Source: an uncultured delta proteobacterium
GTDB lineage: Bacteria; Myxococcota; Myxococcia; Myxococcales; Myxococcaceae
Assembly (NCBI GenBank): GCA_963771175.1
Contig: CAVYSY010000045.1
Span: 1 to 64,000, forward strand
Length of the DNA: 64,000 nucleotides
Direction: 5' to 3'
The notes under the pieces are model-generated. The model was not told the origin of the DNA. It ran no database searches and saw only the letters and a list, made by a program, of their open reading frames with translations. A program made the translations under genes and the position numbers. The stretch's first letter is position 1. Each line of letters opens with the position of its first letter. Below are positions 8,275 to 63,603 of the stretch, piece after piece.

Positions 8275-8275
8275 A

Positions 8276-10439: not shown

Positions 10440-10448
10440 GGAGAGGCC

Positions 10449-11246: not shown

Positions 11247-11250
11247 AGCG

Positions 11251-11844
11251 ATGCGGAATGAGCGCGACGTGGCAGTGAGTGGGGTGGAGGAGGGCCTTCC
11301 CCGGTCGAGCGGTTTCATCCTCTGGTTCACCGGCATGTCCGGCGCGGGCAAGAGCACGCTCTCCCAGGCGGTCCGCCGCCGGCTGGAGCCTGTGCGGCCA
11401 GTGGAGATTCTCGACGGAGATGAGGTCCGCACCTTCCTCTCGCGAGGACTGGGTTTCACCCGGCCGGACCGGGAGGAGAACATCCGAAGGATTGGTTACG
11501 TGGCGCGGCTGCTCGCCCGGCACCGCGTGGCGGTGATCTCCGCGGCCATCTCGCCGTACCGCGACTCGCGCGATGAGGTGCGGCGACTGGCCACCGAGAT
11601 GGGCATCCCCTTCATCGAGGTGCACGCGCAGGCCAGCCTGGATGCGCTCGTCCGCCGCGACGTGAAGGGTCTCTACAAGAAGGCCCTGGCGGGGGAGATC
11701 CCCTTCTTCACCGGCATCTCGGACCCCTACGAGCCACCCGAGTCGCCCGAGGTCACCGTCCGCACCGACTCGGAGACGGTGGAAGAGGGGGTGGAGCGCA
11801 TCCTCGTTGCCCTGCGTGAGCGGGGGCTCATCGCGGCCCGCTGA
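11251..11844 (+). CDS. cysC: Adenylyl-sulfate (APS) kinase
   Basis: WFTGMSGAGKST P-loop, LDGDEVR, LGFTRPDREENIRR, ISPY, RDVKGLY and FTGISDPYEPP. Confidence 0.96.
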   Translation: MRNERDVAVSGVEEGLPRSSGFILWFTGMSGAGKSTLSQAVRRRLEPVRPVEILDGDEVRTFLSRGLGFTRPDREENIRRIGYVARLLARHRVAVISAAISPYRDSRDEVRRLATEMGIPFIEVHAQASLDALVRRDVKGLYKKALAGEIPFFTGISDPYEPPESPEVTVRTDSETVEEGVERILVALRERGLIAAR

Positions 11845-14767: not shown

Positions 14768-25177
<10,410 letters not shown>

Positions 25178-25333: not shown

Positions 25334-27271
25334 GTGCATGAGGTTGTCGCGACTACCTCTGCCGCAGCGATGGCGCCAGTGACGTGTGGAGAATTGGTGC
25401 AAGGGGTTGTGGGGGGGCGAGACTTCCTCATTACGAGCCCCATCGCGCTTCACAGTCGGGTGACAGTGGACCTGTCGCCGGAGTTCGAGGGGGTCCGTGT
25501 CGAGTCCGAGCTCAACTTCGGCAAGACGCTGAAGGCCGTGAGCCTGCTGCTGCGGACCTTGGGGGCGAAGCACCTGGGAGCCCGGCTGCGGGTGGAGACC
25601 CCCGTGCCTCGCAGCAAGGGGCTGGCCTCGAGTACGGCGGATCTCGCGGCCGCGCTGCACGCGTGCGCGGAGGCGCTGGGACATGCGCTCCCTCCCTATC
25701 TGCTGTCGCGCATCGCCGCGGATATCGAGCCTTCGGATGCCGTCTTCTTCCCAGGCTCGGTCATCTATGATCACCTGCGAGGCGAGATCCTCGAGTTTCT
25801 CGGGGCGCCTCCCCCGCTGTCATTCGTGATCATCGACACGGGCGGTGAGGTGGATACGCTCGGCTTCGATCGGGAGCGGGCCAGGGCCCATGCGCGCGCC
25901 TCCGAGGCGCAGGTGGCCCGCGCCATGGCACTGGTGCGGCAAGGCTTCCGCCAGCAGGTGCCGGCACTCGTGGCCGAGGGAGCCACCCTCAGCGCGCGCT
26001 GCCACCAGGCGGTGCTCTTCAAGCCCTGGCTGGAGGAGTTGCTGCGAGCCACGCGCGAGCTGGGCGTGCTGGGGATCAACTGCGGCCACAGTGGTACGGT
26101 GCTCGGGCTGATGTTCGACCCGACCCGGCACGACGGCGCCCCCATCGCCGAGCGGGCCGCGCAGATCACTGGCCCCGGGCGGCTGCTGGGCATTCACCGC
26201 CTCATCTCCGGGGGGACCCGGCTCCTGCGCAGCAGCCGCCAAGGGCTCTCCCAGGCACAGCAGTCCTCCCTCGACACGCTGGGCGAGCCCCTCACGCGTG
26301 TCCCGGTGCGGGATGGGATGGCGATCGCGTTCGAGCATGGGCCGGAGCGGCGGCGCATCTTCGTGTTGCCGGATGGACAGCGGGTCTCGGAGCCTCCCGA
26401 TCCCCTGGAGGGATTGTGCGAGCCCCGCGCCGTGCCGGTGCCGAGGGAAGGCGAGGCATGGGAGATGCGTGTCTCGCGTCTCTCCGAGGAGGAGGGGGTG
26501 GTGCGGTACCTGCCAGGGGAGAACGCCTCGGGGCTGCGCGCCGCGCCGCGCCTGTTGTCGCGGGCGCTCTTCGAGGCCGCCTTCACCCTCCAGGACGGGG
26601 TCTTCGTGCGCCGCGTGCGGGTGGTGAAGACGAGCGAGGGCCGTGTCACCTACGCGGCACCGGATGGCGCGCACATCGTGCTGCCGGTGCCGTTGTTCCT
26701 CTCTGCCTTCCAGCGGAGCCCGCTCGCCGCGGAGTCCCACAGGAGAACGGACATGAGCAGTGCAGCAGTCGACAAAGAGGGCAGCGAGCGGTTGGCGCAC
26801 TATCTCTCCACACAGCAGGTGGACGCCTCCCTGGTCCGGCCCGGGCAGGAGATGCCCACGGTGCCGCTGGCGGCGGTCGCGCTGGGCGTGGGCCCCGAGC
26901 AGATCGTCAAGTCCATCCTGTTCGAGGGCAAGAAGGATCGGGAGCGGGTCGTCCTGGCGATCGCGCCGGGGGACGTGCGTGTGTCCGCGGCGAAGGTCGG
27001 CGCCGCAGCCGGTGTTTCGCAGCTCAAGCTGGCCTCGCCAGACACGGTGCTGCGGACCCTGGGCTATGCGGTAGGCGGAGTGCCGCCGGTAGGGCACGCG
27101 ACCCCGGTCGCCGTGGTGGTGGACGCTCGCGTGCTCAACCACGCCTTCGTCTTCGGGGGGGGCGGGGACGAGCACCACATGCTGCGCATCACCCCTCAGG
27201 ACATCGTCCGGCTGACGGAAGCACGAGTCGCCGATGTGGTGGCGGACCCCGAGCCGAGGCAGGCACCTTGA
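25334..27271 (+). CDS. GHMP kinase (PduX/L-threonine-kinase-like) plus an unknown ~160-aa domain, in frame with a YbaK/EbsC domain; start uncertain (25298, 25334 or 25370)
   Basis: PVTCGELVQG, VPRSKGLASSTAD (GHMP motif II), IEPSD and GHSGTVLGL; the ORF stays open to TGA 27271. Confidence 0.85.
   Translation: MHEVVATTSAAAMAPVTCGELVQGVVGGRDFLITSPIALHSRVTVDLSPEFEGVRVESELNFGKTLKAVSLLLRTLGAKHLGARLRVETPVPRSKGLASSTADLAAALHACAEALGHALPPYLLSRIAADIEPSDAVFFPGSVIYDHLRGEILEFLGAPPPLSFVIIDTGGEVDTLGFDRERARAHARASEAQVARAMALVRQGFRQQVPALVAEGATLSARCHQAVLFKPWLEELLRATRELGVLGINCGHSGTVLGLMFDPTRHDGAPIAERAAQITGPGRLLGIHRLISGGTRLLRSSRQGLSQAQQSSLDTLGEPLTRVPVRDGMAIAFEHGPERRRIFVLPDGQRVSEPPDPLEGLCEPRAVPVPREGEAWEMRVSRLSEEEGVVRYLPGENASGLRAAPRLLSRALFEAAFTLQDGVFVRRVRVVKTSEGRVTYAAPDGAHIVLPVPLFLSAFQRSPLAAESHRRTDMSSAAVDKEGSERLAHYLSTQQVDASLVRPGQEMPTVPLAAVALGVGPEQIVKSILFEGKKDRERVVLAIAPGDVRVSAAKVGAAAGVSQLKLASPDTVLRTLGYAVGGVPPVGHATPVAVVVDARVLNHAFVFGGGGDEHHMLRITPQDIVRLTEARVADVVADPEPRQAP
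26753..27271 (+). CDS. YbaK/EbsC (INS superfamily) aminoacyl-tRNA deacylase-like protein; possibly its own gene
   Basis: QIVKSILF, GYAVGGVPPVGH and VFGGGGDE; own AGGAGA RBS (26741) and an ATGA start at 26753. Confidence 0.85.
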   Translation: MSSAAVDKEGSERLAHYLSTQQVDASLVRPGQEMPTVPLAAVALGVGPEQIVKSILFEGKKDRERVVLAIAPGDVRVSAAKVGAAAGVSQLKLASPDTVLRTLGYAVGGVPPVGHATPVAVVVDARVLNHAFVFGGGGDEHHMLRITPQDIVRLTEARVADVVADPEPRQAP

Positions 27272-28771
27272 GCACGCAGGCCATCGGGCGGCTCGTGCGC
27301 GGCCCCCACCCGGTCCTCTTCGAGCTGCTGTACGAGCCGCACTTCGCCTCCGACAAGGCGCAGGTCCTCCCGCACCTGCTGCGCATCGACGCCGCCCATG
27401 TCGTGATGCTCGCGCGCCGTGGCATCCTCGCACCCGAGCCCGCCGCGCGCCTGCTCGCGCTCAATCGGGAGCTGGCGCGCCGCCTGGCCGCGGGCGAGGA
27501 GCTGTCTCCCTCCGCCCCCCTCTCACCGGGGGCTCTATCTGCTCTATGAGGGCGAGTACATCTCCCGGCTGGGCGGAGAGGTGGGAGGCGCGGCCCACGT
27601 GGCGCGCAGCCGCAACGACATCAATGCCACCGTGACGCGCATGCGCCTGCGCACCGCCTTGGCCGAGGTGCTGCGGCAGGGGCTGCTGCTGGCCGGCGCG
27701 CTGGAGCGGCTTGGCGTGGCGCATGCGCAGACGCTGATGAGCGCCTTCACGCACCTCCAGCCAGCCCAGCCGGCCACCTTCGGCCACTACCTGGACGGGG
27801 TGTTGTCCGAGCTGCTGCGGACGCTCGACTGGCTCGCGGGGGCCCAGGAGCGCATCAACCGCTGCCCCATGGGCGCCGCGGCGGGCGTGGGCACCTCCTT
27901 TCCGATTGATACCGCCCTCGTGGCGGAGTTGCTGGGCTTCGACGGGCCGCTGGGCAACTCGCTGGACGCGGTGGGCTCGCGCGACTATGTGGTCCAGGTG
28001 CTCAGTGGGCTGGCGCTGCTGGGCAGCCTGCTCACGCGCCTGGCGGCGGATCTCCAGACGTGGGCCAGCTCGGCCTACGGCTTCCTGGGGTGGCCGGACG
28101 AGCTGGTGAGCACCAGCTCCATCATGCCGCAGAAGCGCAACGCCTTCGTCCTGGAGAACATCCGCGGTCAGGCCGTGAAGGCCACGGGCTTCCTGATGAG
28201 CACGCTGATGGGGCTCAAGAGCACGTCCTTCACGAACAGCGTGGAGGTCAGCTCCGAGGCCACCAGTCCCGTGTGGCCGGCCCTGGAGGCGAGCCGGACG
28301 GCGCTGGTGCTCATGGAGCTGCTGGTGTCCAACGTCATCGTCCAGCCGGAGGCCATGCGGCGGTTCCTGTTGGGACAGGACACCACCATGACGGCGCTGG
28401 CGGACCATCTCGTCGCGCGGCACGGGCTGGCCTTCCGCACGGCGCATGAGGTGGTGGGGCGGCTGGTGAACCTCAAAAGCGAGCCAGACCTCACGCCGGC
28501 CGCGGCGCGGAGCCTGCTGGAGCCCCTGCTCGCCACCGCGCTGGGCCGTGCCGTCTCCCTGGACGAGGCGGAGCTGGCCCGGGTGCTGGAGCCGGAGGGT
28601 TGTGTGCACGCGGCGGCCTACGGCGGCGGCCCCGCTCCGGAGGCGGTCCGCGCGCACCTGGCCGTGCTGGGGCAGGAGCGCCTGCGGCTCCAGCAGCGCG
28701 TGCAGGGGTGGAGAGCGCGGCTGGAGGCCGCGGACGAATCGTTGAATGCGGCGAGCGCCGCACAGGAGTGA
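27268..28771 (+). CDS. Argininosuccinate-lyase/fumarate-lyase superfamily C-N lyase; frameshift near 27510
   Basis: HVARSRND, FTHLQPAQP, SSIMPQKRN signature and FRTAHEVVG; TTG start overlaps the previous stop. Confidence 0.9.
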
Positions 28772-28781
28772 TTCCATTCCC

Positions 28782-29906
28782 ATGAAGCGAACCATGCTCA
28801 AGAAGGCAGCAACGGTTCTGGAGTTGATGAGGGACACCCCCCTGGTGGCACTCAAGGGGCGCGCCGTGTCGCGACCACGGGCTCAGCTGTGGGCCAAGCT
28901 GGAGCTGGCCATGCCCGGCCAGATGAAGGACCGGGTTGCGCTCAAGGCCATCGAGGATGCGGAGGCTCGTGGGCAGCTCTCGCCGGGCGGCATCATCGCG
29001 GAGAGTTCCTCGGGCACCATGGCGGAGGGGCTGGCCCGGGTGGGCGCGGTGAAGGGCTACCGCGTCATCATCGTCACCGATCCGCGGATCGACACGGGCC
29101 TGCTCAACAAGCTGCGCGCCTTCGGGGCCGAGGTGGATGTCGTCGAGAGCTACCACCCGACGGGGGGCTGGCAGCAGGCGCGGCTGATGCGGCTGCGGGA
29201 GATCCTCCGCGCGAATCCGGGTGCGTTCTGGCCACGGCAGTACGACTCTCCCAGCAACCCCGGGGCCTACACGGAGACGATGACGGCGGAGTTGGTCGAT
29301 GCGCTCGGGCCGCGTATCGCGGCGCTGGTGGGCACCGTCGGCAGCGGTGGCTCGCTCACCGGGACCGCGGAGCGGCTCAAGGCGCTGGCGCCGGGGGTCC
29401 GCATCGTGGCGGTGGATGCGGTGGGCTCGGTCATCTTCCACCAGCCCAACCTCCCGCGCCTCCAGAGCGGCCACGGAAACAGCATCATCGCCGGCAACAT
29501 CAACTACCGTGTCATCGATGAGGCGCACTGGCTGTCGGACGGCGAGGTGTTCAACGCCTGCCACGAGCTGGCGCGGCGCGAGTCCATCTTCGGCGGGGGC
29601 TCGTCCGGCGCCGCCTACGTGGTGGCCTCCTGGCTGGCCGAGCAGTTCGCGCCAGAGCAGCATGTCGTGGCGCTGATGCCGGACCGGGGGGATCGCTACT
29701 GCGAGACCATCTACTCGCGGAGCTACCTGGCCGAGCATGGGTTGGTCGGGGTGGAGGCGGCGGCTGCCCCCACGCCCATCCGCTATGGCGTGGACGTGGC
29801 CGATCGCTGGAGCCATGCCTCCTTGCCCCATGAGGGCTCCGTCCCCTACTACTCGCCTTCCGTGATGCGCAGCAGCGTGTTGACGCGGGCGCTGGAAATG
29901 GAGTGA
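28782..29906 (+). CDS. Cysteine-synthase-like PLP-dependent beta-replacement enzyme (DabA/SbnA-like)
   Basis: DTPLV, AKLELAMPGQMKDR (PLP lysine), ESSSGT, VGSGGS, GGSSG and PDRGDRY. Confidence 0.92.
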   Translation: MKRTMLKKAATVLELMRDTPLVALKGRAVSRPRAQLWAKLELAMPGQMKDRVALKAIEDAEARGQLSPGGIIAESSSGTMAEGLARVGAVKGYRVIIVTDPRIDTGLLNKLRAFGAEVDVVESYHPTGGWQQARLMRLREILRANPGAFWPRQYDSPSNPGAYTETMTAELVDALGPRIAALVGTVGSGGSLTGTAERLKALAPGVRIVAVDAVGSVIFHQPNLPRLQSGHGNSIIAGNINYRVIDEAHWLSDGEVFNACHELARRESIFGGGSSGAAYVVASWLAEQFAPEQHVVALMPDRGDRYCETIYSRSYLAEHGLVGVEAAAAPTPIRYGVDVADRWSHASLPHEGSVPYYSPSVMRSSVLTRALEME

Positions 29907-29910
29907 GCGG

Positions 29911-31164
29911 GTGAGTCATTTCGTCTTCGTCGAGAGCAACACCACCGGGACGGGGCGGCTGGCGGTGGAGCGCCTGCTGGCCCAGGGCGAACGGGTGACG
30001 TTCATCACCCGGCAGCCGGAGAAGTACCCGTTCCTCGTGGGCAACACGGCCCCCCACCTGCGGGTGTTGCGTGTGGAGACCAACGACGCGGCGGCGGTGG
30101 AGGCCAGCGTCGAGATGCTGGCGAGCGAGGGGCGCGTGGATGCGCTGCTCACCTTCTCCACGTTCTACGTGCCCACGGTGGCGGCCGTCGCGGCGCGGCG
30201 TGGCCTGCGCTACCTCCATCCGCGCGCGGCTTATGCGTGTCACCACAAGCACGAGGCGCGCACCCTGCTGCGCGCGGCGGGGCTGCCCGGGCCGGACTTC
30301 CACGTTCTCTCCTCCGAGGCGGAGGCGGAGCGGTTGGCTGGAACGCTGCGCTTCCCGTGCGTCGTGAAGCCACCCGCGGAGAGTGGTAGCACCGGGGTGC
30401 GGAGGGTGGAGACGCCCGAGGAGCTGCTGGCACACTTCCGCGCCCTGCACTCGCGCGCCGTCAACGAGCGCGGCCAGCCCTTGCTGGGGGAGGTGCTGGT
30501 GGAGTCCCTGCTGGAGGGGCCGGAGTTCAGCGTGGAGACGATGACGCTGGCGGATGGCACCACCCACGTCCTCGGCATCACCCAGAAATACCTCTCCGCG
30601 CCGCCGCACTTCGTGGAGATGGGGCATGACTTCCCGGCGGACTTGTCCCCCGAGCGGCGGCGCGCGCTGGAGGAGGCCGTGCTCGCGGGCCTCGGGGCGG
30701 TGGGCTTTGACTTCGGCCCGGCCCACACGGAGATCCGCTTCACCCCCTCCGGCCCCGTCATCATCGAGATCAACCCCCGGTTGGCTGGTGGAATGATCCC
30801 GGAGCTGGTGCGGCTGTCCACCGGAGTGGATCTGCTCACCGCGATGCTGGACCAGCTCCTGGGGCGGCCGGTGGACCTCACGCACACGCGCCAGGAGGTG
30901 GCCTGTATCCGCTTCCTCACCTCGGAGCGCCCCGGCGTGCTGGCCCGCGTGGCGGGGCTGGAAGAGGCCTCCCGGCTGGAGACGGTCCGCCAGGTGGCCG
31001 TGGACAAGGCCGCGGGGGCCCGACTCCGCTCGCCCGAGAGCGCGACGGATCGGCTGGGTTTTGTCATCGCCAGCGGACCGGAGCGTGAGCAGGTTCTCGG
31101 GGATGCGGCGCGGGCCCTCGGCCTGCTCCGGGTGGAGCTGGCCTCCGCCGAGGGGGGGTCGTGA
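29911..31164 (+). CDS. ATP-grasp amino-acid ligase
   Basis: FVESNTTGTG, FPCVVKP...GSTGVR, LVESLLEGPEFSVE, HTEIR and IIEINPRLAGG. Confidence 0.92.
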   Translation: MSHFVFVESNTTGTGRLAVERLLAQGERVTFITRQPEKYPFLVGNTAPHLRVLRVETNDAAAVEASVEMLASEGRVDALLTFSTFYVPTVAAVAARRGLRYLHPRAAYACHHKHEARTLLRAAGLPGPDFHVLSSEAEAERLAGTLRFPCVVKPPAESGSTGVRRVETPEELLAHFRALHSRAVNERGQPLLGEVLVESLLEGPEFSVETMTLADGTTHVLGITQKYLSAPPHFVEMGHDFPADLSPERRRALEEAVLAGLGAVGFDFGPAHTEIRFTPSGPVIIEINPRLAGGMIPELVRLSTGVDLLTAMLDQLLGRPVDLTHTRQEVACIRFLTSERPGVLARVAGLEEASRLETVRQVAVDKAAGARLRSPESATDRLGFVIASGPEREQVLGDAARALGLLRVELASAEGGS

Positions 31165-33800
31165 CAAGAGGGTGGGGAGGGCTTCTCGGGGCCTTGCTCG
31201 TGGCGACAGGGGCGGACGCCCAGGGGGCGCGTGAGCTGGAGCCGTCGCCCGCGCTGGTGCGGACGGTGGGATATATCGACACCCTGCGAGCGGTCTCACC
31301 GCCCACGGTGGATGGGAGCCTGGACGAGGAGGCCTGGCGGCAGGCGCCCGTCTTCCGCGACTTCCGCCAGACCCTCCCCGAGCCCGGAGCCGCTCCCAGC
31401 CAGCGGACCGAGGTGCGTGTCCTCCACGACGACGCGTACCTCTACTTCGGCATCATCTGCTTCGACACCGAGCCCGGGGCGATTGATCGGCGGCTGGGGC
31501 GCCGGGATGCGCCACCTACCTCGGATATGGTCACGGTATTCCTCAGCCCGCGCCCTGCTGCGCGCACGGGCTACGCCTTCAGCGTCAATGCCGCTGGGGT
31601 CCTCAAGGACAGCCTCATCACCGATGACAACCAGTTCACCGATGACTGGGATGCCGTCTGGGACGGAGTCTCCTCGGAGCGCTCGGACGGCTGGGCCGCG
31701 GAACTGCGCATCCCGCTGTCGCTGCTGCGTTTCGACGAAGACGTGCTCCAGCAATGGGGGGTCGGTGTCCGGCGCCACCTGGCTCGGACCCAGGAGGTCA
31801 TCGACTCGGCGGAGCTGCCTCCGGGCGCCAACGCGCTCATCTCCCGCCTGGGCTCGCTGCAGGGCCTGTCCGGGCTGAGCGCCTCGTCGTCGCTGGAGCT
31901 GAGCCCCTACGTCGCCCCCCGCCTCGTGCGCCGCCCTCAGTACACGGAGCCCTCCCGCCCATGGCCTCGCCTCTTCAACCCCGCGGCCGACGCGGGACTG
32001 GACTTCCGGTGGGCCCCGACGCGGGACCTGGCCCTGGTGGGCGCCCTCAACCCGGACTTCAGCCAGCTGGAGGCGGATCAGCTCCGGGTCAACCTCAGCA
32101 ACTTCGAGCTCTTCTTCCAAGAGCGGCGCCCCTTCTTCACCCAGGGGATGGAGCTGTTCGTCCCGGTGAGTGCCAACGAGGGGCGGGCCCGGCAGATCCT
32201 CTTCTACTCGCGCCGCATCGGGCTGGATGCGCCCATCCTCGGCGCGGTCAAGCTGACGGGCACGGTGGGCGAGGAGCTGGACATCGGCGTGCTGGACTCG
32301 CTGGTGATGGGCGCAGCGGATCCGGCCAAGGAGGCAGCGCTGGTGCGGGGAGAGGCTCCGGACGAGTCGAACCCCCGCCGGCAGGTGGGCTTCCACCCCA
32401 AGCGCCCGTTCCACCTGGGGCTGGATGACGAGCTGCCCTCCCTGGAGCCGGTGACGCGCAACTTCCTGGCCGCGGTGGTGCGGCGCCGCTTCGGCGCCCT
32501 GGGCTCTGTCGGAGGCACGGTGGCGGCCGTCACCCCCTTCGCGGCGCCTTGCCCGCGCGAGGAGCCGGGACAGGCGCCGGACACCGTGGCGCTGGCGCGC
32601 TGCCGCCCGGTGGGGGCGCAGGTGGGCTCGTTGGATTGGACACTTGGCACGGCCTCGGGCGAGTGGCGCGTGCTCGGCCACGTGGCGGGCTCGCGCGTGA
32701 CGGGCGGCGCGCCCGAGGGAGAGGTGCTGGCGGACGGCACCCTGCTGCGGGCGGGGGACACGGGCCTGGGAGCCTTCGTGCGTGCGGGCAAGCTGGGCGG
32801 CGAGCCGCTGCGCTTCTCGGTCGGGTACACGCGTGCCTCCCCGCGCTTGGAGCTCAACCGTACCGGCTACCTCGTCGCGCAGAACGAGCAGACCGCGGAC
32901 ATGCAGCTCACCTGGGTCCGTGCCTCTCGCCAGGGGTGGCTCGAGTCCCTGGAGTCCAACCTCACCCTGCTCGGCCGCTGGTCCTCGGACGAGCGCGGCG
33001 TGGGGCTGGCCCAGCGCCTCATCTCCGTCACCGAGGCCGTCCTGACTGGCTACCACACGCTCACCTTCACCGCGGGCTACGAGGTGGGGCGCCGGGACAT
33101 CTGGGAAATCGTCGGCACCGGCATTCCGGTGGAGCGCCCCAACCACCTCTATCTGGATGGCAGCCTGAGCACGGATCCTCGCCGCAGCGTCGTCCTGAAG
33201 GCCTCGGGCTACTTCGAGCGGCTCTTCTCCCAGGGCGCCAGCCCCACCCAGTCCGGCGGTGGAGGGGGGCTGACCCTCCAGATGAACGCCCACCCGGCGC
33301 TGGAGACGCGGCTGGAGGTGTCCCTGGAGCGGCCAGGGGAGGGCGCTCGGTTCCTGGAGGCGCTGGGCCCGGGCCGCTTCCTCTTTGGCGAACTGGAGCC
33401 CCAGTACGTCACCCTGACGCTGCGCCAGCTCTGGGTCATCACCCCGCGGCTGACCTTCCAGGGCTACGGCCAGCTCTTCCATGGCTCTGTACGGGCGAGC
33501 GCCGTCTACGAGGCCGCGCCCGAGCCAGGGGGGCCGGTTCGTCTGGTGGATCTGGTGCCGGCCTCCGCGGACTCGCGGCCAGACTTCGACGTCTCCGGCC
33601 TCAACCTCAACCTCGTGCTGCGCTGGGAGTACCGCCCGGGTGCCAGCTTCTACGTCGTCTATTCGCGCACGCAGAACGGGCTGCCGCTGGCGCCCTCCGG
33701 CCTCCGTCCCGAGCCCGGCCTGGTGCCGCGCGGCGAGCTCTGGAAGGGCCCCGCCACGGATCTGCTGCTGCTGAAGCTGTCCTGGTGGTGGGCGGCCTGA
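31161..33800 (+). CDS. Secreted/outer-membrane protein, CBM9-like N-terminus plus DUF5916-like beta-barrel
   Basis: Signal peptide; VDGSLDEEAW, WDAVW, GWAAELRIP, LNPDFSQLEAD, ERRPFF, FYSRRIG, NLVLRWEYRPG; aromatic C-terminus KLSWWW. Confidence 0.75.
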   Translation: MTRGWGGLLGALLVATGADAQGARELEPSPALVRTVGYIDTLRAVSPPTVDGSLDEEAWRQAPVFRDFRQTLPEPGAAPSQRTEVRVLHDDAYLYFGIICFDTEPGAIDRRLGRRDAPPTSDMVTVFLSPRPAARTGYAFSVNAAGVLKDSLITDDNQFTDDWDAVWDGVSSERSDGWAAELRIPLSLLRFDEDVLQQWGVGVRRHLARTQEVIDSAELPPGANALISRLGSLQGLSGLSASSSLELSPYVAPRLVRRPQYTEPSRPWPRLFNPAADAGLDFRWAPTRDLALVGALNPDFSQLEADQLRVNLSNFELFFQERRPFFTQGMELFVPVSANEGRARQILFYSRRIGLDAPILGAVKLTGTVGEELDIGVLDSLVMGAADPAKEAALVRGEAPDESNPRRQVGFHPKRPFHLGLDDELPSLEPVTRNFLAAVVRRRFGALGSVGGTVAAVTPFAAPCPREEPGQAPDTVALARCRPVGAQVGSLDWTLGTASGEWRVLGHVAGSRVTGGAPEGEVLADGTLLRAGDTGLGAFVRAGKLGGEPLRFSVGYTRASPRLELNRTGYLVAQNEQTADMQLTWVRASRQGWLESLESNLTLLGRWSSDERGVGLAQRLISVTEAVLTGYHTLTFTAGYEVGRRDIWEIVGTGIPVERPNHLYLDGSLSTDPRRSVVLKASGYFERLFSQGASPTQSGGGGGLTLQMNAHPALETRLEVSLERPGEGARFLEALGPGRFLFGELEPQYVTLTLRQLWVITPRLTFQGYGQLFHGSVRASAVYEAAPEPGGPVRLVDLVPASADSRPDFDVSGLNLNLVLRWEYRPGASFYVVYSRTQNGLPLAPSGLRPEPGLVPRGELWKGPATDLLLLKLSWWWAA

Positions 33801-33810
33801 GCGTCCGGCC

Positions 33811-35649
33811 TCAGTCCACGCGCCAGCGCATCCAGCGGGACAGGCCCACGAAGCTGGCCAGTGTCACCACGGCCAGCACCGCGAGGTCCAGCGCGAAGCG
33901 GGCATCCACGGTGCCATCCAGCGCCCGGCGCAGCGCGTCCGCCGCGTAGGTGGGGGGCAGCAGCATCCCGAGTGCCCGCAGGGGCGGGGGCAGCGCCTCC
34001 GCGGGGATGAACACGGGCGCGGCCAGCAGCAGCAGGGAGATGAGGGCATTGGTGACGACCACGAGCAGGTCCAGGTCTCGGATGAGCGAGCCCAGCACCA
34101 GACCTGCTCCGCAGAAGGACAACGCGCTGAGCGGGACGAGCACCAGCAGCCAGGGGCTCAGCTCCAGCCGGATGCCGTGCAGCAGCCAGCCGGCGAGCAG
34201 CGGGGTGACGACCCCGGGGAAGATGATGAACACGCGGGAGAGGACGAGGGAGGCGACGAAGGAGGCCTGGCTGATGGGCAGAGCGGCGTAATAGATGAGC
34301 CGCCCGTCCTTGCGCATCATCCCGATGCGCTGCGCGCAGGTGAGGAGCCCCTCGGTGGCCACCGCGAACACCGCTGCCCCGCTGACGATGTAGAGCAGGC
34401 TCATCCGGTCGCTCAGGCCCAGGCCGATGCGCGACAGCCCGAACACCATCGCCACCGGCATGAAGAGGGAGAAGACGGCGTTCCAGGCCCAGGTGTGCCG
34501 CACCTCCAGCATGTGCTCGAACCACAGGTACTTGAGCGCCACCAGCTCGCGCCGCAGGCGGCTCGGGCCGGGCGAGGGGCTCTCCTCGATGCTCGGGACT
34601 GGTGGCAGTGCTGGGGCCTCCTCGCACGCGCCGCGGTCCAGATCCAGATACACCTCTTCCAGGGAAGGAGGGGCGAGTCGGAGATCCTCCACCCGTTGCA
34701 ACCCCAGCGCCTGGAGGATCTCGGCGCTGGCCTGCCCGGCGCGCTGGGGCTCCAGGTAGGTGCGATAGTGCCCCTCGCGGATCTCGGTGACCTGACCATG
34801 GCCGCGCAGCCGCTCCAACTCCCAGTCCTCCAGCCGCACGCCCTCCTTGAGCTGCAGCTCCAGCCGCACGTGGCCGCCCGCGCGCTGCTTGATGTCCTGG
34901 GGCGTCCCGAGTGCGATGATGCGCCCCCGGTCCATCACCGCCACGCGGTGGATGACCCGCTCGGCCTCCAGCACGTTGTGGGTGACGAGCAGGCAGGTGA
35001 GGCCCTGCTCCCGGTTGAGCTGATCCAGGGTGTCCCAGACGAGGCGCCGCTTGTGCGGATCCAACTCGTTGGTGGGCTCGTCGAGGATGAGCAGCCGGGG
35101 GTTTCCCATGAGTGCCATGCCGAAGCCGACCAGCCGCGACATGCCGCCACTGAGGTGGTTGACGTACCGCCGCCGGAAGTCGCCCAGGCCGAGCATGTCG
35201 ATGAGCTGGCGGGTCTGCGCGCGCGCGTCATGCTCGCTCTGGCCCCTCAGCCGTCCGGTGTAGTGCAGCGCGCGCTCCACCTCCACGTAGTGGAGCGCCA
35301 GCTCGCCCTGGGGCAGGAAGCCGATCAGCTCCTTCACCGCGTCCGGCTGGCGAACGACGTCCACGTGCTCGACCTGGAGGTGGCCCGAGGTGGGGCGCAT
35401 GAGCCCCATGAGCTGCATGACGAGCGTCGTCTTCCCGGCGCCGTTGGGCCCCAGCAGCCCGAAGATCTCTCCGCGGTGGATGTCGAAGGAGAGCCGATCG
35501 TTGGCGACCACTGGCGGCTCGCCGGGAAACGTACGGACCAGCTCCCGCACCGCCACCGCCACGCGAGGGGTCACTGCGGGCGCCAGGGGGGCGAGGGGCT
35601 CGGCGGGGGGGGCAACAAGGAGTAGGGGCTGCCCGGGAGTGGAGTTCAC
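33811..35649 (-). CDS. ABC exporter: ATPase fused to an ABC-2-type permease
   Basis: GPNGAGKTT, LSGGM, ILDEP and THN, followed by a 6-TM domain with APVFIP...LPP...PPTYA. Confidence 0.88.
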   Translation of the reverse strand: MNSTPGQPLLLVAPPAEPLAPLAPAVTPRVAVAVRELVRTFPGEPPVVANDRLSFDIHRGEIFGLLGPNGAGKTTLVMQLMGLMRPTSGHLQVEHVDVVRQPDAVKELIGFLPQGELALHYVEVERALHYTGRLRGQSEHDARAQTRQLIDMLGLGDFRRRYVNHLSGGMSRLVGFGMALMGNPRLLILDEPTNELDPHKRRLVWDTLDQLNREQGLTCLLVTHNVLEAERVIHRVAVMDRGRIIALGTPQDIKQRAGGHVRLELQLKEGVRLEDWELERLRGHGQVTEIREGHYRTYLEPQRAGQASAEILQALGLQRVEDLRLAPPSLEEVYLDLDRGACEEAPALPPVPSIEESPSPGPSRLRRELVALKYLWFEHMLEVRHTWAWNAVFSLFMPVAMVFGLSRIGLGLSDRMSLLYIVSGAAVFAVATEGLLTCAQRIGMMRKDGRLIYYAALPISQASFVASLVLSRVFIIFPGVVTPLLAGWLLHGIRLELSPWLLVLVPLSALSFCGAGLVLGSLIRDLDLLVVVTNALISLLLLAAPVFIPAEALPPPLRALGMLLPPTYAADALRRALDGTVDARFALDLAVLAVVTLASFVGLSRWMRWRVD

Positions 35650-37940
35650 AGCTCCTCCGTCTGCGTGATGACCGTGGTGTCGGTGAAGCCGAAGCCATAC
35701 GGGGCCGCCATGAGGGTGGAGGGCCGCCGCTGGGACTCAGGGAGGGTGGGGATGCCCAGGGAGACGGCGCTGGCGCGCACGCGCACCGGGCCTCCCCCCC
35801 GCACCCTCAGGAAGAAGGGGAGCCCTTCCGGCGGGGGCTGCCAATAGTCGAGGTGGAGCCCCGCCCCCGCGGCGAGCACCGCGCCCGGCACTGGGGAGCC
35901 ACCCACCCGGGCCTCGAGGAGCTCCATCGGCGGCAGATCCAACTGGAGCAGCGCCGCGCCAGGGGGGACCTCCACCCGGAGGGTGAGGACGCGCACCTCG
36001 CCCTCCCGGCGCTCCTCGAGCAGGAGGGTGCGAGCCGGAGACAGCGGCAGCAGAGGCGCCTCGCGGTAGAGCACCTCCGTCTCCAGCCAGGGCAGGGCCT
36101 CGTCGAAGCGTCGCGCCGAGGGAGCCGTGCCGAGGAACTGCTCCGCCCACTGGCCATGGGTGGCCTCGTGGGACAGCCAGAAGGCCCGGCGCCCATCCCC
36201 GTCCAGCCAGTAGGCGATGCTCTCGGGCCAGGGGCGGGACGCCGAGGGGCTCGCCGCCAGCGCCCCGGCCACCAACAGCACCCCTCCGGCCGCCATCGCC
36301 CCGGCTGCCAGGGCGTGCCAGCGCTCGCGGATGAGCCACGCCAGGGCGGGAGCTAGCAGCCCGAGCACCAGGGAAGCGAGGAGCAGGCCCACGCCCGCCA
36401 GCGAGAGCCCGAGTGCCGAGAGGAGCGGGTACAGGGTGGAGGTGACCAGCATCAGCAGGGGCGCCCCACCCGCGGCGAGCACCAGCCCCGCCGCCCATGG
36501 GCGCTCGCCCACGCGGCGCAGGGCGAGGTGCGTCAGCCAGGCCAGGAGCAGGGGCCACGCGAAGAGATAGCTTGCCCCGGGGAGGAGCACGGCGGTGGCC
36601 ACCGCGAGCGCGGCCCATGGCAGCCGTGCCCCGTGCCCCCACTCCTCCTCCTGCACGCGCGCCTGCCCCCAGCGCCGGGCCAGCGTGAAGGGCACGAGCG
36701 CCAGGGCGAGGAGGCCGGCCTGGAAGGGCGCCGGTGTGTGGGCATCTCCCTGGGCGAAGGCCTCCAACCCGGTGGCGTTCTGCGTGGCGCGCCACGCCAG
36801 GGTGACGAGCACCGCCGCGGCCAGGGCGCTCAGCACCGTTCCCACCACCGCCAGGGCCAGCCCCCGGATCCTGAGCCGCCCGGCGCGCACCGCGCCCACC
36901 AGGGTGAGCACCTCGAGCACCAGCAGCAGCACCGCGAGCGGAATGGCCCATGCCCGGGGGTACGCGACGAGCCAGTCTCCCACCGGGTTGAAGTAGACGA
37001 GCCCCTGGGCCTCTCGAGGCGGCGTCTCCCCGTCCGCGAGCGCGCGCGTGAGGGCCAGCAGGTTCTCGCCATGGTGCTGGAGGCTGCCGTCGTCGAGCTG
37101 CTCCGGCGTGTCCAGCCACGTGTGGTAGTGGATGAGCCCCTCGATGAAGGCGAAGTTCATCCCCGCCAGGCCCGCCTGGCGGAAGATGGACAGGTCGGTG
37201 TCGGCCGACAGGTAGGGGTAGAGCTCTCCCGCGAGCGAGTTGCCCATCGGGTGGGGGGCCACCTCCCTGAACCGCTGGATGAGCCAGCCCTGGGGCCCGG
37301 TCGTCTCGAAGAGGAGGGAGGGCCCGCGCGTGCCACGGGCCTCGAAGTTGAGGGTGACCGCCACCTTCGCGAAGAGCGGGTGCTGGAGGAAGCCCTCGGC
37401 GCCGAGCAGCCCCGCCTCTTCCGCGTCCGTGAACAGAAAGAGGACGTCGTGTCGTGGTGGCGGCTCGGTGCGCAGGGCCCGCAGGGCCTCCAGCATGGCC
37501 GCGACCGCGGCGCCGTTGTCCGCGGCGCCGGGGCCGCTGGGGACCGAGTCGTAGTGCCCCACCACCAGCACGGCGTGGTGGCCCTCGGTGCCCGGCAGGC
37601 GCGCGAGGACGTTGTGCACGGTGGCTGCCACCACGGCGCCAGGGGCCCCCTGCGCCCGGAGGAGCTCGGTGGTCTGTACCTCGGGGGACACACCCAGCTC
37701 GGTCAGGCGCGCGAGCAGCTCCCGCCGCACCTCGGCCAGGCGCGCCGAGCCCACCGGCCGGGGCTGCGCCGTGAGCCAGGCGAGGTGCTGGCGCGCGCGC
37801 GCCGCCGAGAACGCGCCCACGGGCGCAGCTCCTCCCAGGGCGGCAGGCGGACGGTGGGTGGCGAGCGCGAGCACGACCGCCGCGGCCAGCAGGAAGGCCA
37901 GGCCGAGGCGTGGTGCGAGTTCGGGCGGGAGCCGGCTCAT
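35646..37940 (-). CDS. M28-family membrane-bound metallopeptidase (ERMP1-like architecture)
   Basis: GHYDSV, GAADNG, DAEEAGLLG, NFEARG and YHT Zn-site motifs, followed by a multi-TM region. Confidence 0.88.
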   Translation of the reverse strand: MSRLPPELAPRLGLAFLLAAAVVLALATHRPPAALGGAAPVGAFSAARARQHLAWLTAQPRPVGSARLAEVRRELLARLTELGVSPEVQTTELLRAQGAPGAVVAATVHNVLARLPGTEGHHAVLVVGHYDSVPSGPGAADNGAAVAAMLEALRALRTEPPPRHDVLFLFTDAEEAGLLGAEGFLQHPLFAKVAVTLNFEARGTRGPSLLFETTGPQGWLIQRFREVAPHPMGNSLAGELYPYLSADTDLSIFRQAGLAGMNFAFIEGLIHYHTWLDTPEQLDDGSLQHHGENLLALTRALADGETPPREAQGLVYFNPVGDWLVAYPRAWAIPLAVLLLVLEVLTLVGAVRAGRLRIRGLALAVVGTVLSALAAAVLVTLAWRATQNATGLEAFAQGDAHTPAPFQAGLLALALVPFTLARRWGQARVQEEEWGHGARLPWAALAVATAVLLPGASYLFAWPLLLAWLTHLALRRVGERPWAAGLVLAAGGAPLLMLVTSTLYPLLSALGLSLAGVGLLLASLVLGLLAPALAWLIRERWHALAAGAMAAGGVLLVAGALAASPSASRPWPESIAYWLDGDGRRAFWLSHEATHGQWAEQFLGTAPSARRFDEALPWLETEVLYREAPLLPLSPARTLLLEERREGEVRVLTLRVEVPPGAALLQLDLPPMELLEARVGGSPVPGAVLAAGAGLHLDYWQPPPEGLPFFLRVRGGGPVRVRASAVSLGIPTLPESQRRPSTLMAAPYGFGFTDTTVITQTEEL

Positions 37941-37956
37941 GCGTCGGTTCAGGGGC

Positions 37957-38871
37957 TCAGGCCGCCACCGCGAGGCGGGGTTCCTCCACCACCTCGGCCT
38001 GCGTGGCGGGCCGCGCCCAGACGATGAAGAGGGCGGGGTAGAGCAGGAAGAGGTGCCAGAACGAGATGTTCATCGTGAGGCCAACTCCCATGTGGAACAT
38101 CATGGACATGGCCCCCAGCCAGCGTGGGAAGCGCCCCAGCACCAGTCCCAGGGGAAGGAAGCCGAACTCGAAGATCCCGGCGAACAGTGTGGAGGCGGTG
38201 AAGAACCAGGGGAAGCGGGTGAGCTCCCGGCCAATCCACCCCCCTGTCTCCAGCGTCTGGATGAACGGGGTCTGCCCGAGCACGAACCAGTCCAGGCCGC
38301 CGGAGAGCAGCTTGGCCAGCCCGGCCTGGAAGTAGAAGACCGCGATGAAGAGCTGCATCGCGCCCATGGCGAACGAGGCCCGCTGCTGCTCGGCGAGCGG
38401 GTCCACCGGGGGGCGCGTCCGCCCCAGCCTCGCATCGAGCGAGAGGGCCTGTCCGCAGGGGAAGAGGCAGAGCGCGAGCAGGAAGAAGTTCAGGTAGGTG
38501 TTGTAGGCCCACGTCGGCCGGGTGAAGCAGGCGACGTAGTAGTTCCATGCGGTGAAGAGGGTGCCGAACAGCACCGCCGAGGGGCGCGTGGCCAGCCCGA
38601 GGGTGAAGAGCACCCCGGTGAGGATGATGGCTGCCTCGAGCACCCACAGCCCCGTACGCCCCAGCGGCGGGAAGAACGAGAAGAGCGGGCTCGGGCGGTA
38701 CAGCAGATCCGCGGTGTCGATCAGGAACTGGCTGTACGGCTCCAGCAGCACGTAGGCGATGCAGATGAGCCCCACTGAGATGCGCATGAGGGCCAGCCGA
38801 CGCAGGGGCTCGGGCTGCTCGAAGAGGAGGCGGTACAAATGGGTCTCGAGCTGGCGGAGTCGGGCCATCAT
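37957..38871 (-). CDS. HTTM-domain / vitamin-K-dependent gamma-carboxylase-like (SdpB-like) membrane protein
   Basis: LALMRISVG, LFTLGLATR, QALSLDA, YFQAGLAKL...W, FEFGF and FHMGVGLTMNISF pattern. Confidence 0.75.
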   Translation of the reverse strand: MMARLRQLETHLYRLLFEQPEPLRRLALMRISVGLICIAYVLLEPYSQFLIDTADLLYRPSPLFSFFPPLGRTGLWVLEAAIILTGVLFTLGLATRPSAVLFGTLFTAWNYYVACFTRPTWAYNTYLNFFLLALCLFPCGQALSLDARLGRTRPPVDPLAEQQRASFAMGAMQLFIAVFYFQAGLAKLLSGGLDWFVLGQTPFIQTLETGGWIGRELTRFPWFFTASTLFAGIFEFGFLPLGLVLGRFPRWLGAMSMMFHMGVGLTMNISFWHLFLLYPALFIVWARPATQAEVVEEPRLAVAA

Positions 38872-39410
38872 TGGGGGCGGGGCTCGGAGTAGGAGTAGAA
38901 GGGCACGCTCTTCAGGGGCTCGAGCGGGGAGCCGTACTGGTAGAGGGTGTAGTCGAGGGTGTCGGCGGTGAGCTCGAAGCCCACGAAGCGCGCTCCGGGC
39001 GCGGGCCGCAGCGGCAGGGCGAACTCATCGAAGTCCCGCCACGGCTCGCCGTTCACCCACTGGAGGATGAGCGGCGAGAAGCGCTCGCGCACTCCCGTGA
39101 GGTCGCCATCCGGCAGGTAGATGCGGTGCATCAGGTCCATGGCCAGCCAGTAGTCCATCGGGACGACGTTCCAGGGATCTCCGGTGACGCGGCGGCCCGT
39201 GTCCTCGATGAGGTGGACCTTCATCACCTCCTGCTGCAAGGGGGTGACGTGTTTGAAGAACGAGTGGTCGGCGAAGGGCCAGTTGGAGTGCTGCAGCACG
39301 GCGGTGTGGAAGAGCTGGATGCCCAGCAGCGCCGTGAGCACACCCGCCAGGAGGCGCTTGTGCGTGGGGGAGAGCCCGGCCCCTGAGTGGTTTCGAGGGG
39401 CGCCGCTCAT
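38868..39410 (-). CDS. Hypothetical membrane-anchored protein, probable partner of the HTTM protein
   Basis: One N-terminal TM, then NWPFADHSFF; 4-bp overlaps with both neighbours. Confidence 0.7.
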   Translation of the reverse strand: MSGAPRNHSGAGLSPTHKRLLAGVLTALLGIQLFHTAVLQHSNWPFADHSFFKHVTPLQQEVMKVHLIEDTGRRVTGDPWNVVPMDYWLAMDLMHRIYLPDGDLTGVRERFSPLILQWVNGEPWRDFDEFALPLRPAPGARFVGFELTADTLDYTLYQYGSPLEPLKSVPFYSYSEPRPQ

Positions 39411-42400
39411 GCCACGCTCTCCTGGCCGGGGGCCACCGGCGCCGCCGCGAGCCGCTTCTCCAGGCCCAGGATGGTGCGCTCGCGGAACAGGTCGCGCAGC
39501 GCGAGGTTCGCCTGGAAGGCCTCGTTGATGCGCGCCATCAGCCGGATGGCGTGGATGGAGTGCCCGCCCAGCTCGAAGAAGTCATCGGTGACGCCCACGG
39601 AGGGCAGCCCGAGCACGTCACACCAGAGCGCCGCCAGCCGCTCCTGGACGGGGCCCTGGGGAGGCACCGCGCGTTCCGGCTCGCGGGGGCCGAGCGGCAG
39701 CTCCGGCAGCGCACGCTCGTCCACCTTGCCGCTCGGCGTGAGGGGAAGGGCCGACAGGAACCGGAAGTGCTCCGGCACCATGTAGTCCGGCAGGCTGTCG
39801 CGCAGCTCCTGCCTCAGCGTGCGTGCCTCCACGGGGCGCCAGAGGTACTCCGCCGCGGGCGCGTGCGGGTGCTCCATCCAGACGCTCGGATCGTAGTACT
39901 CCCCCATGCCTGCCTCCAGGTCGATGTGCACTGGCCGCAGCGTGTCCCGGACGACGTAGTCGCCGCTGGCCGGGAACGTCCGCCCGGCCCAACGCTGCCA
40001 GTCCTCCACGCTCGCCTCTATCCGCTGCGAGCGGGGCTCCACGCGCAGCACGCGCGCGCCCATCCGTTCGTGGGTCCGCAGCCACCGGTCGTCCAGCTGG
40101 CCGTCCTCGCGCCGGCGCAGGCAGTACTCCTCGACGCTCTCCTCCGGGCGCGCGGTCTTGTCCACCGGCCGTACTGGTGCCACCAGGCGCTCCAGCCCCT
40201 GGGCATGGGCCAGGTGCTTCATCGCCTTCAAGAGGAAGGAGCTCAGGCCTTGGCCGTGGGCGTTCGTGCTCACCACCGCGGCGAGCAGCATCAGGGTGTC
40301 GGGGTGCTCGCCGCGCGAGGCACCCGCGAAGGCCCGCTCGATCGCGTCGTCCCACCCGCGCGGCAGCGTTTCCAGCGTGCCATTCCAGGAGAAGGGGAGG
40401 GCATTGCCGACGCCCACCAGGGTGTCCTTCTCGTCGAGCACGGCGAGCTGGTACTCGGGGAACTCGGCGCTCAGGCGCGGCCAGAAGGTGCGCATCGCGC
40501 AGTTGCCCAGGAAGTACTCGGGCCAGCTCTCCGCGTGCAGCGTGTCCGCGGCGCGCCGCAGCTCGGGGCGCTGGGACAGGGTGAAGAGCCGGTAGTGCCG
40601 GTCGTCGCCCAGCCGCACGAAGCGCTCGTGCAGCTCCAGGTACGCCACGAGCGTGTCGCCGCCGCCGGGGGCCTGCTGGTGGCGCACGAGGCACCTGTCT
40701 ACCGCCGGGTGCGCGGCCAGCCGGCCCTCCACTTCCTCCAGCTCCACGCGGTTGCCGCGGATCTTCACCTGCTTGTCCACGCGCGCCACGTAGTGGAGCT
40801 GTCCGTCCTCGGAGTAGCGCCCCAGGTCACCCGTGCGGTAGAGCCGCGCGCCCGGCACCGCCGAGTACGGGTCAGGGACGAACTGGAGCGCGGTGCGGAC
40901 CGGATCCTCGGCATAACCCCGCGCCAGACCCGGGGAGCTGATGAACAGCTCGCCCTTGACCCCGGGCGGCACCAGCCGGAGCGCCGTGTCGAGCACCAGC
41001 GCCCGGGTGTTGTCCAGGGGTCTGCCGATGGGCACCAGCTCCGTGGAGACGGGTGCGGCGCAGGGGAAGCGGGTGGCGTCCACCGTCACCTCGGTGGGGC
41101 CGTAATGGTTGGCCAACCGGCAGGGCAGGGCGGCCAGCGCGCGATCTCGTAGCTCCCGGGTGAGGTAGGCGCCGCCGCAGATGAGGAGCCGGAGGGAAGG
41201 TAGCGGGGGCAGCTCCCCGGCGAGCTGGGCCTGAATGAGCGCATCCAGCATGAGCGGCACCGTTTGGAAGGCCGTCACCTGATGGCGGGCGACCCGCGCC
41301 GCGATGCGGGCCGGATCCTTGTTCTCGCCCGGCTGAGGCAGGACGACGCGCGCCCCGAAGGCGAGCGGCCAGAAGAAGTCCAGCACGGAGGCATCGAAGT
41401 CCACGGGGGTGATGAAGAGCACCGTGTCCCCGGCCTTCAGGCCGTACTCGCGCTGGGTGGAGTCGATGAGGTTGTGCACGCCCAGGTGGGAGATCTCGAT
41501 TCCCTTGGGCGTGCCGGTGGTGCCGGAGGTGTAGAGGACGTAGGCGAGCTGCTCCGCCAGGACGCGCATCGGGGCGCCCGTGGGCAACGCGGAGACCTCG
41601 GCCCCGTGCTCCTCCATCCGGAAGACGCCCGGGCGATCCCTCAGGGCTGGCGCCTGGAGGGAGCCATGGGTGAGCACGGTGCGCACGCCCGCCTGCGTGA
41701 GCACGTGCTCGTGGCGCTCGGCGGGGTGGTCCGGGTTGAGGGGCACGTAGGCCGCGCCGGCCTTGAGGATGGCCAGCAGCGCGATCCCCAGATCCAGCGA
41801 GGGCTCGAGCAGCACCGCCACCCGCTCCTCGGGGCGCATCCCGCGGGCGAGCAGCCAGCGCGCCCACCGGTCCGAGGCCTCGTCCAGGGCCCGGTAGGTC
41901 AGGGTGCCGGAGTCGTGCTCGAGCGCCACCGCGTCCGGGGTGGCACGAGCCTGCGCGGACAGGCGCGCGGTGAGACCCTCCTGCTGCTCGAAGGCGTGGG
42001 TGGGGCCGGACAGCTCGCGCAGCCAGCGCGTCTCGGCCTCGGCGGTCAGCAGCCGGTAGTCCGCCAGGGGCTTGCCGGGGGCGCGTGCCGTCTCGGCGGC
42101 CAGGGAGAAGAACTGCTCCAGCATCCGCTCCACGCTCTCTCGCCGGAACAGGTCGCTGTTGTAGTTGAGGCTGACGATGGTGTCGTTGCCGAACTGCTCC
42201 ACGATGAAGGTCAGATCGAAGCGCGCGTTCTGGAACTCAGGCGTGGCCATGTTGGTGAGGTAGCGCAGCTCCAGCCCCTCGAAGCGCAGCTCCGAGGCCA
42301 GCTTCGTCTTGTTGTTCTGGACGCCGTACATCACCGAGAACAGCCGGTTGCGTGACAAGTCCATCTGGGGGTTGACCTCCTGGATGGAGAGCACGCTCGG

Positions 42401-46759: not shown

Positions 46760-46941
46760 TTCGGGGCGGCATACTCGGTGCTCATCCCAGGACAGGTCAA
46801 CGAACATTCACGAGGCTGGCCTGTTTCTCTAGAAATCTAGTATAGGCGGGGTTCGCAGGTATGCGCGTCCTACGCCCCTCGGAGTGGCCTAGGGGGGGAT
46901 TGCTGCTCACTTGGGTGTTCCTGCTCACCGCCATCGTCGAC
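46760..46941. promoter_or_regulatory. Divergent promoter region between the two NRPS operons
   Basis: Short intergenic region between head-to-head genes; AT-rich core tttctctagaaatctagtata (46824-46844) containing TTTCT-N2-AGAAA. Confidence 0.6.
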
Positions 46942-52296: not shown

Positions 52297-61987
<9,691 letters not shown>

Positions 61988-63495: not shown

Positions 63496-63603
63496 GGCAG
63501 GGGAGCTCAATGGCAGCACATACTACCAGGGCACCTGCGGTAGAGTCTCAACCCCGAATCCTGGCCATGCGCTGCATGGCCCACCCCACACAGGAGTCGC
63601 ATC

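Follow-up and report, generated by a model that had tools for sequence, protein, structure and literature searches.

We identified an operon that probably makes (2S,3R)-2,3-diaminobutyrate (Dab) from threonine for two modules of an adjacent lipopeptide nonribosomal peptide synthetase (NRPS), judging by the domains it encodes and their context. It lies in the DNA analyzed here (the window), which spans positions 1-64,000 of contig C45 (CAVYSY010000045.1) from the genome of an uncultured myxobacterium (G000; completeness 82%). Four genes on the plus strand, with junctions that overlap or are close, encode a GHMP kinase, an argininosuccinate lyase (ASL)-like enzyme, an SbnA-like pyridoxal phosphate (PLP) enzyme, and an ATP-grasp protein. 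This gene set (25334-31164) is flanked on one side by an NRPS/polyketide synthase (PKS) cluster, whose thioesterase gene ends at 25177, and on the other by a second NRPS cluster (39407-61987). The original prediction, made from the DNA alone, had named these four enzyme types as an operon, and the domain matches bear it out.

The pathway is proposed to run as follows. The PduX-like kinase would phosphorylate L-threonine, as its homology suggests. The PLP enzyme would then eliminate the phosphate and add L-aspartate at the beta carbon, as shown for DabB, and the lyase would free fumarate and Dab, as shown in vivo for DabC. Finally, the adenylation (A) domains, gripping the beta-amine via two Asp and an Asn as does SulM A3, would load Dab and probably some 2,3-diaminopropionate (Dap). 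In the passages of Li et al. (2024; PMC10906522) on which we draw here and below, dabABC of Burkholderia thailandensis E264 encodes a threonine kinase (DabA), an enzyme joining phosphothreonine and aspartate (DabB), and an ATP-grasp/lyase (DabC) that together give (2S,3R)-Dab; a threonine kinase was present in 4/4 Dab clusters and 0/5 Dap clusters. All parts of this route are present in the window, which supports the sequence of phosphothreonine formation, beta-replacement with aspartate, and fumarate loss put forward in the original prediction. The pathway had been offered there as a candidate; its parts are indeed in place, but the route is already established in the literature. Since this chemistry has been published for dabABC, the core pathway is a known one that here turns up in a new phylum.

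What is new here is the phylum, the fusion of the kinase to a middle domain and a YbaK domain together with its co-distribution, and an orphan NRPS with an unusual last module. More tentatively, and with less than even confidence, we propose that the YbaK domain represents a new INS subfamily dedicated to deacylating 2,3-diaminobutyryl-tRNA(Thr); fused to the pathway-committing kinase, it would guard the producers of an undescribed myxobacterial Dab lipopeptide family ending in an HHxxWDE/GNAT-interrupted, thioesterase-less module. As the original prediction had supposed, no such pathway for a myxobacterial lipopeptide, no myxobacterial 2,3-Dab peptide, and no matching product were found in the literature searched, most subscription papers being outside that search.

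The four enzymes and the dabABC route

The kinase domain is 32% identical to Salmonella PduX over 96% of length (E 1e-19), and its gene is present as a single copy in G000. It is also 44% identical to the kinase half of P0131, where a relative of the kinase is fused to PF00155, as expected for a cobalamin threonine-phosphate enzyme. The genes next to the window kinase encode the lyase, the PLP enzyme, and the NRPS, and not pdu or cob functions; locus L160 contrasts with it in this respect. No match under E 0.001 was obtained for the kinase among solved structures.

The ATP-grasp protein and the lyase match positions 4-398 and 410-873, respectively, of the fused family PRK02186, and the DabC equivalent appears to be split here into these two genes. 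In the PLP enzyme, the residues that align with SbnA Arg132 and Tyr152 are retained and a Gly stands at SbnA Ser185, three positions that we assume to have a functional role. This enzyme shares its fold with the enzyme of the SbnA/SbnB (SulH/SulG) Dap pathway but differs from it in a loop, in falling below the cut-off of the SbnA equivalog TIGR03945 (267 versus 350 bits), and in having a lyase as partner instead of a dehydrogenase. No SbnB-type partner is encoded in the operon, the cyclodeaminase genes of G000 being found only on contigs C8 and C10. In a quick tree of 54 rows (L011, L012, and L018 were left out as duplicates of counted genomes, and matches under 220 aa were dropped), the enzyme groups with kinase- or lyase-linked enzymes and apart from the SbnA-type enzyme of G000 encoded on C10. 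Its closest named relatives are myxobacterial (Stigmatella sp. ncwal1, 90%; Hyalangium, Melittangium, and Corallococcus, 72%), and the gene was found in 13/208 genomes of the host family.

Among the closest known systems are the dabABC genes and the friulimicin dab genes related to them. The window shares with dabABC the threonine kinase, the cysteine-synthase-like PLP enzyme, the ATP-grasp and ASL-like lyase functions, a 2,3-diamino-acid A domain, and the lack of an aldolase. It differs in its separate ATP-grasp and lyase genes (such splits are mentioned in PMC10906522), in the fusion of the kinase to a middle domain and a YbaK/ProX domain, in its myxobacterial host, and in an assembly line that is a fatty-acyl-loaded six-module NRPS without thioesterase and not one for a monobactam. 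The window enzymes show 35/41/32/39% identity to those of a Mesorhizobium plasmid operon (kinase-PLP-fused ATP-grasp/lyase) and 34/37/50/44% to those of a Streptomyces operon (L155; lyase-kinase-PLP/ATP-grasp-aldolase). The latter has the layout of the pacidamycin, napsamycin, and mureidomycin Dab operons, which contain the same four enzyme types and, in addition, a threonine aldolase, the mark of clusters giving the (2S,3S) isomer (PMC10906522). No threonine aldolase gene was detected in the window cluster or on 84 kb of this contig, a clear genome copy being located on C26; we therefore predict (2S,3R)-Dab. Against the assignment to dabABC, it should be noted that membership is judged from the architecture and from same-layout operons at 32-50% identity, and not from DabA/B/C (BK065153) themselves. 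A primer pattern for dabABC from PMC10906522 gave 0 matches in metagenome contigs.

The NRPS genes of the G000 assembly contain many single-base indels, and an additional base at 27506 breaks the lyase gene in two. This base is missing from the contigs of 3/3 sequencing runs (2 studies; the best-matching run is possibly that of the source sample), and we therefore take the gene to be very likely unbroken in the organism itself. The lyase as a pseudogene was rejected on this evidence and because the gene is intact in relatives. We also rejected the kinase-YbaK frame as an assembly artefact, since the same three runs show no indel within it and the same fusion is found in L011 and other proteins.

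The Mesorhizobium plasmid pMLa carries a complete operon of dabABC layout (L158:5818-10658) with no NRPS among the annotated neighbours, and similar kinases are encoded on many rhizobial plasmids.

Substrate of the A domains

The two A domains with the code DVWEFNADDK reported in the original prediction were recovered, one on each strand (Table 1), and are 93% identical. Code positions were set from conserved A-domain motifs, under a numbering that we take as given. The motif YGPTE-[CAT]-x-DD occurs 3 times in G000 against 59 A3 motifs, and 2 of the 3 are in the window. We compared 11 other regions of up to 120 kb (the 1.7 kb contig of G002 is not included), 10 of which hold the lyase, PLP enzyme, and ATP-grasp genes. 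Nine of these ten related myxobacterial regions encode an A domain of the type D-[VI]-W...DD-K, the tenth being a 27 kb contig without NRPS. Both counts speak against a chance pairing of operon and code. In the genomes G120, G122, and G131, the operon stands beside the same divergent NRPS pair and the left-hand cluster is absent, and the operon was therefore assigned to the NRPS at 39407-61987. This synteny supports the earlier claim that the operon feeds two modules.

The nearest solved A-domain cores are those of PvdL (DIWELTADDK, E 3e-30, the best match) and 9N1U (DVWEMNADDK). The latter is SulM A3, whose code equals that of the window at 9/10 positions, with Met at 299 where the window has Phe. 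SulM is fed with Dap by SulGH. In the passages of PMC12042044 on SulM A3 (PDB 9N1U/9N1V) cited here, the beta-amine is held by a pair of Asp residues together with an Asn, and the pocket admits no C3 group larger than methyl. Shared with the window are Asp, Val, Trp, Glu, and these contact residues (Asp330/Asp331 and Asn301), and 2,3- rather than 2,4-diamino acids are predicted for this reason. The code thus marks diamino acids, as the original prediction had it, and more narrowly 2,3-diamino acids, but it does not select Dab over Dap. Searches for the code strings in the literature returned unrelated papers only.

Several observations weigh against Dab as the substrate. SulM A3, the nearest characterized pocket, and the Burkholderia A3 both prefer Dap (kcat/KM ~85 versus 5.4 per mM per min; PMC10906522), and DabBC alone makes Dap from phosphoserine (PMC10906522). 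The code DVWEFNADDK is also carried by G131, where no kinase was found. In addition, contig C10 of G000 holds another lipopeptide NRPS cluster (44236-94734, A domain DIWEMTADDK), with an SbnA-type gene at one end (44236-45225) and a cyclodeaminase gene 49 kb off, at 93913; this is likely a Dap route in the same genome. Given the preference of this pocket type, the code of G131, and the Dap genes on C10, the code cannot separate Dab from Dap. Substrate supply probably decides, and mixed Dab/Dap congeners are plausible. We nevertheless consider it unlikely that the modules mainly load L-Dap, made from phosphoserine by the PLP enzyme and the lyase or by the SbnA-type pair of the genome, with Dab as a minor substrate. 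The kinase is intact and is the first gene of the operon; expression of DabABC gave a methylated product as the major one; and the Burkholderia A3, though part of a dabABC cluster, likewise prefers Dap in vitro (PMC10906522).

Dab made by the operon could also be destined for the upstream NRPS/PKS cluster. The operon is on the same strand, ~160 bp past the thioesterase gene of that cluster, which runs off the contig start so that some modules are unseen. This destination is most improbable, as three of its four visible A domains have a readable YGPTE motif without the DD pair (indels disrupt the fourth, at 2696), and the three relatives named above keep the operon with the right-hand NRPS only. 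Turning to that NRPS, its A-domain core has PvdL of pyoverdine as its best structural match, and we take the matched PvdL module to load 2,4-diaminobutyrate (2,4-Dab). There is, however, very little to recommend the idea that the window domains load the same compound and that the operon feeds something else: they have an Asn at 301 like SulM A3, and not Thr; this code class accompanies the operon in 9/10 of the relatives compared; and the Burkholderia A3 shows slight 2,4-Dab activity only (PMC10906522). Supply of Dab to the two DVWEFNADDK modules remains our preferred reading.

Operons with lyase, PLP enzyme, and ATP-grasp genes are found in G131, G439, G440, and G843, genomes in which no kinase was detected. 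They are candidate natural users of the DabBC reaction to Dap, which in the passages cited from Li et al. (PMC10906522) was seen only via engineering.

The YbaK domain fused to the kinase

The PduX-like domain of the first gene was seen in the original prediction, but what is fused to it was overlooked: the frame reads on to 27271 through ~170 aa into a tRNA_edit domain (PF04073, E 3e-25) of the YbaK/ProX type. The same three-part fusion is present in L011 and in 5/11 other proteins from a homology search. The YbaK domain has its own ATG with AGGAG upstream and may therefore also be made alone. The middle domain is predicted to be mostly beta, with a weak SH3/Tudor-like resemblance that is not significant (best VIA Z of 6.1 over ~50 residues). 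It gave no Atlas match, no Foldseek match at E <= 0.001, and no stand-alone homologue among 279 candidates.

The tRNA_edit domain contains a conserved Lys and a GXXXP loop, presumably the key motifs of the INS family. It scores 64 bits against the 153 required by TIGR00011, the YbaK equivalog for Cys-tRNA(Pro) deacylase, and its nearest structures are the trans-editing proteins 2CX5 and 1WDV. The Lys, GGVPP, and a subfamily motif, GGGGDE-H-M, are kept in 9/9 aligned members. A tRNA_edit match was found in 44/208 genomes of the host family, where 9 other hits at 58-85% identity are all directly 5' of a Dab lyase gene and the next tier is at <=39%. Wherever the surroundings are readable, the subfamily adjoins the lyase gene, just before it. 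No further member was found in 401 sampled genomes of the host phylum, while among 401 genomes from the phylum to which G438 belongs the sole match was G438 itself, again within the operon. When 1.84 billion representatives were searched with a profile, 57 hits reached E <= 1e-30, and the top six of these include two kinase fusions and a lyase fusion (P0135). In metagenome contigs, 226 pattern matches to the domain were obtained and 0 were confirmed. The more distant hits include HD-domain fusions to tRNA_edit (P0154, P0167, P0172, and P0215).

Among the 20 genomes with this PLP clade, 13 have both kinase and YbaK, 5 have neither, 2 have the kinase only, and none has YbaK only. Here, neither means not found (G131, G002, G439, G440, and G843), and the kinase-only genomes are G442, where it is beside an aldolase gene, and G844, which is fragmented. 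The two genes are 7-37 kb apart in 6/13 of the genomes with both, so their link is not one of adjacency alone. A genome that lost the kinase would be expected to have Dap in its product instead of Dab, and the pattern thus fits a guard against a threonine analogue.

Such guards are known. In the passages of Millar et al. (2026; PMC13149037) cited here, the tRNA-editing proteins FthB and BesG are encoded with enzymes for threonine analogues, and deacylases of this kind provide self-protection against them; FthB, which is also of the INS family, acts for fluorothreonine. The window domain is likewise encoded with biosynthetic genes and co-distributed with them, but unlike FthB and BesG it is fused to a pathway enzyme. 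Dab is threonine with NH2 in place of OH in the same configuration. From the gene context, free Dab may be mischarged on tRNA(Thr) and then removed by the YbaK domain. By analogy with FthB, we regard this clearing of tRNA(Thr) as plausible, though slightly short of an even chance. Diaminobutyrate is not mentioned in the main text passages of PMC13149037 cited here or in its 8 supplementary files, and no deacylase tied to Dab was found in the literature searched.

An unrelated deacylase, AlaX, is encoded in other clusters with a PduX-like kinase and a PLP enzyme, in G012 and on two Bacillus plasmids. The G012 locus (L004:6792-17326) has no lyase gene and includes genes for a LuxC-like reductase, a class V aminotransferase, an ATP-grasp protein, and a racemase-like protein; we read it as a different threonine-derived amino acid pathway. 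The Bacillus operon (L154:5054-10562 and L157:1701-5751) encodes, in order, a kinase, an alanyl-tRNA editing protein, a PLP enzyme, a cystathionine beta-lyase-like protein, and in some cases an EamA exporter, and may make a sulfur analogue of threonine.

The distribution of YbaK also provides arguments against a role in tRNA(Thr) editing. The domain is present in 0/31 distant loci (L019-L049, within the DNA compared) and is dispensable for the pathway; 18 of these 31 have an aldolase, but L034, L037, L040, and L043 combine kinase and lyase with neither aldolase nor YbaK. It is also absent from the annotation of L158 and L159 and from the published three-gene operon. A rule by which YbaK occurs only with the (2S,3R) isomer was rejected, as G107 and G110 carry both aldolase and YbaK. 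Moreover, the 20 genomes are kin in which neighbouring genes are gained and lost together, several are metagenome bins, and completeness is stated for 2/5 of those with neither gene. There is nearly an even chance that the Dab route is right but that the YbaK domain serves another tRNA, clears wrongly loaded carrier proteins or by-products of the ATP-grasp protein, or is simply carried along. The lack of YbaK in most Dab operons, the general trans-editing function of 2CX5 and 1WDV, the co-occurrence with aldolase, and the divergence of the fused copy in P0128 at the conserved motifs all agree with this explanation. Set against it are the invariance of these motifs in the nine aligned members, two separate fusions to pathway enzymes (kinase and lyase), the 0/13 occurrences of YbaK without the kinase, and the recruitment of an unrelated deacylase family to similar clusters.

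The NRPS, its predicted product, and neighbouring genes

The features of the operon and of the right-hand cluster are listed in Table 1.

Table 1 Positions of the operon genes and of the adjacent NRPS cluster in the window
Feature	Position	Strand	Remarks
PduX-like GHMP kinase domain (DabA equivalent)	25334-26230	+	N-terminal part of the 25334-27271 frame; start codon approximate
~170 aa middle domain	26231-26752	+	Present only behind this kinase
YbaK/ProX (INS family) tRNA-editing domain	26753-27271	+	In frame with the kinase
Argininosuccinate-lyase-like enzyme (candidate DabC C-half)	27268-28771	+	Lyase_1 and ASL_C2; SRND, THLQPAQP, and SSIMPQKRN motifs
PLP beta-replacement enzyme (candidate DabB equivalent)	28782-29906	+	Best NCBIfam family SbnA, E 1e-79, below cut-off
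ATP-grasp protein (putative DabC N-half)	29911-31164	+	PRK02186 match, E 1e-101
DUF5916 protein	31161-33800	+	Overlaps the ATP-grasp stop; accompanies the cluster in several relatives
ABC exporter, M28 peptidase, HTTM-domain protein, 180 aa protein	33811-39410	-	Downstream of the minus-strand NRPS
Two-module NRPS: condensation (C)-A(DVWEFNADDK)-peptidyl carrier protein (PCP), then C (HHILWDE), A(DALQIGHVDK) with GNAT-like insert, PCP	39407-46807	-	No thioesterase
A domain, code DVWEFNADDK	43736-45262	-	
Fatty-acyl-AMP-ligase-like loading unit and four NRPS modules: DAFTLGVVFK, DALWLGGTFK, DVWHISLVDK, DVWEFNADDK	46861-61987	+	DVWHISLVDK read across indels
A domain, code DVWEFNADDK	60110-61633	+	
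Stand-alone GNAT acetyltransferase	62695-63519	-	Cluster edge; position kept in G120, G122, and G131

The plus-strand NRPS has several frameshifts after 55880. From the codes, the product is predicted to be an acyl hexapeptide, X-Val-Ser-Dab-Dab-Y, in which the order of the two NRPS arms is inferred and the Val and Ser labels are those that we assume for their codes. In the terminal module (39407-43411, minus strand), the A domain is interrupted by a GNAT-like insert of ~265 aa (39842-40642). The module is conserved in 8 relatives (G120, G122, G131, G130, G093, G102, G107, and L009) and, in the clusters read, follows a diamino-acid module; it could acylate or release the product. No match for a GNAT-interrupted A domain was found in the literature searched.

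Among the neighbouring genes, those for the M28 peptidase and the ABC exporter suggest an acylated pro-drug cleaved on export, and the stand-alone GNAT suggests self-resistance by acetylation. A carboxylase step by the HTTM-domain protein with its 180 aa partner is possible, on a likeness of HTTM domains to vitamin K-dependent carboxylases that we assume. The NRPS/PKS cluster at 1-25177 is a separate one, with many frameshifts and truncated where the contig begins; it has cysD, cysN, and adenylylsulfate kinase genes (8240-11844), an EmrAB-like exporter, and a thioesterase at its end; a sulfated product is suggested.

The Dab route itself is settled, and its presence is a useful prediction of product chemistry. 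From the cluster, cultured myxobacteria seem to hold an orphan family of lipopeptides, one whose terminal module is unusual. If the proposed role of the YbaK domain is true, it would provide a case, open to testing, in which a biosynthetic enzyme carries its own translation quality control, and it would imply that threonyl-tRNA synthetase mischarges Dab. Self-protection by tRNA deacylases, known for fluorothreonine and beta-ethynylserine, would then also cover a common building block of NRPS products, and where clusters share the same A-domain code, YbaK would serve as a marker that tells producers of Dab from those of Dap.

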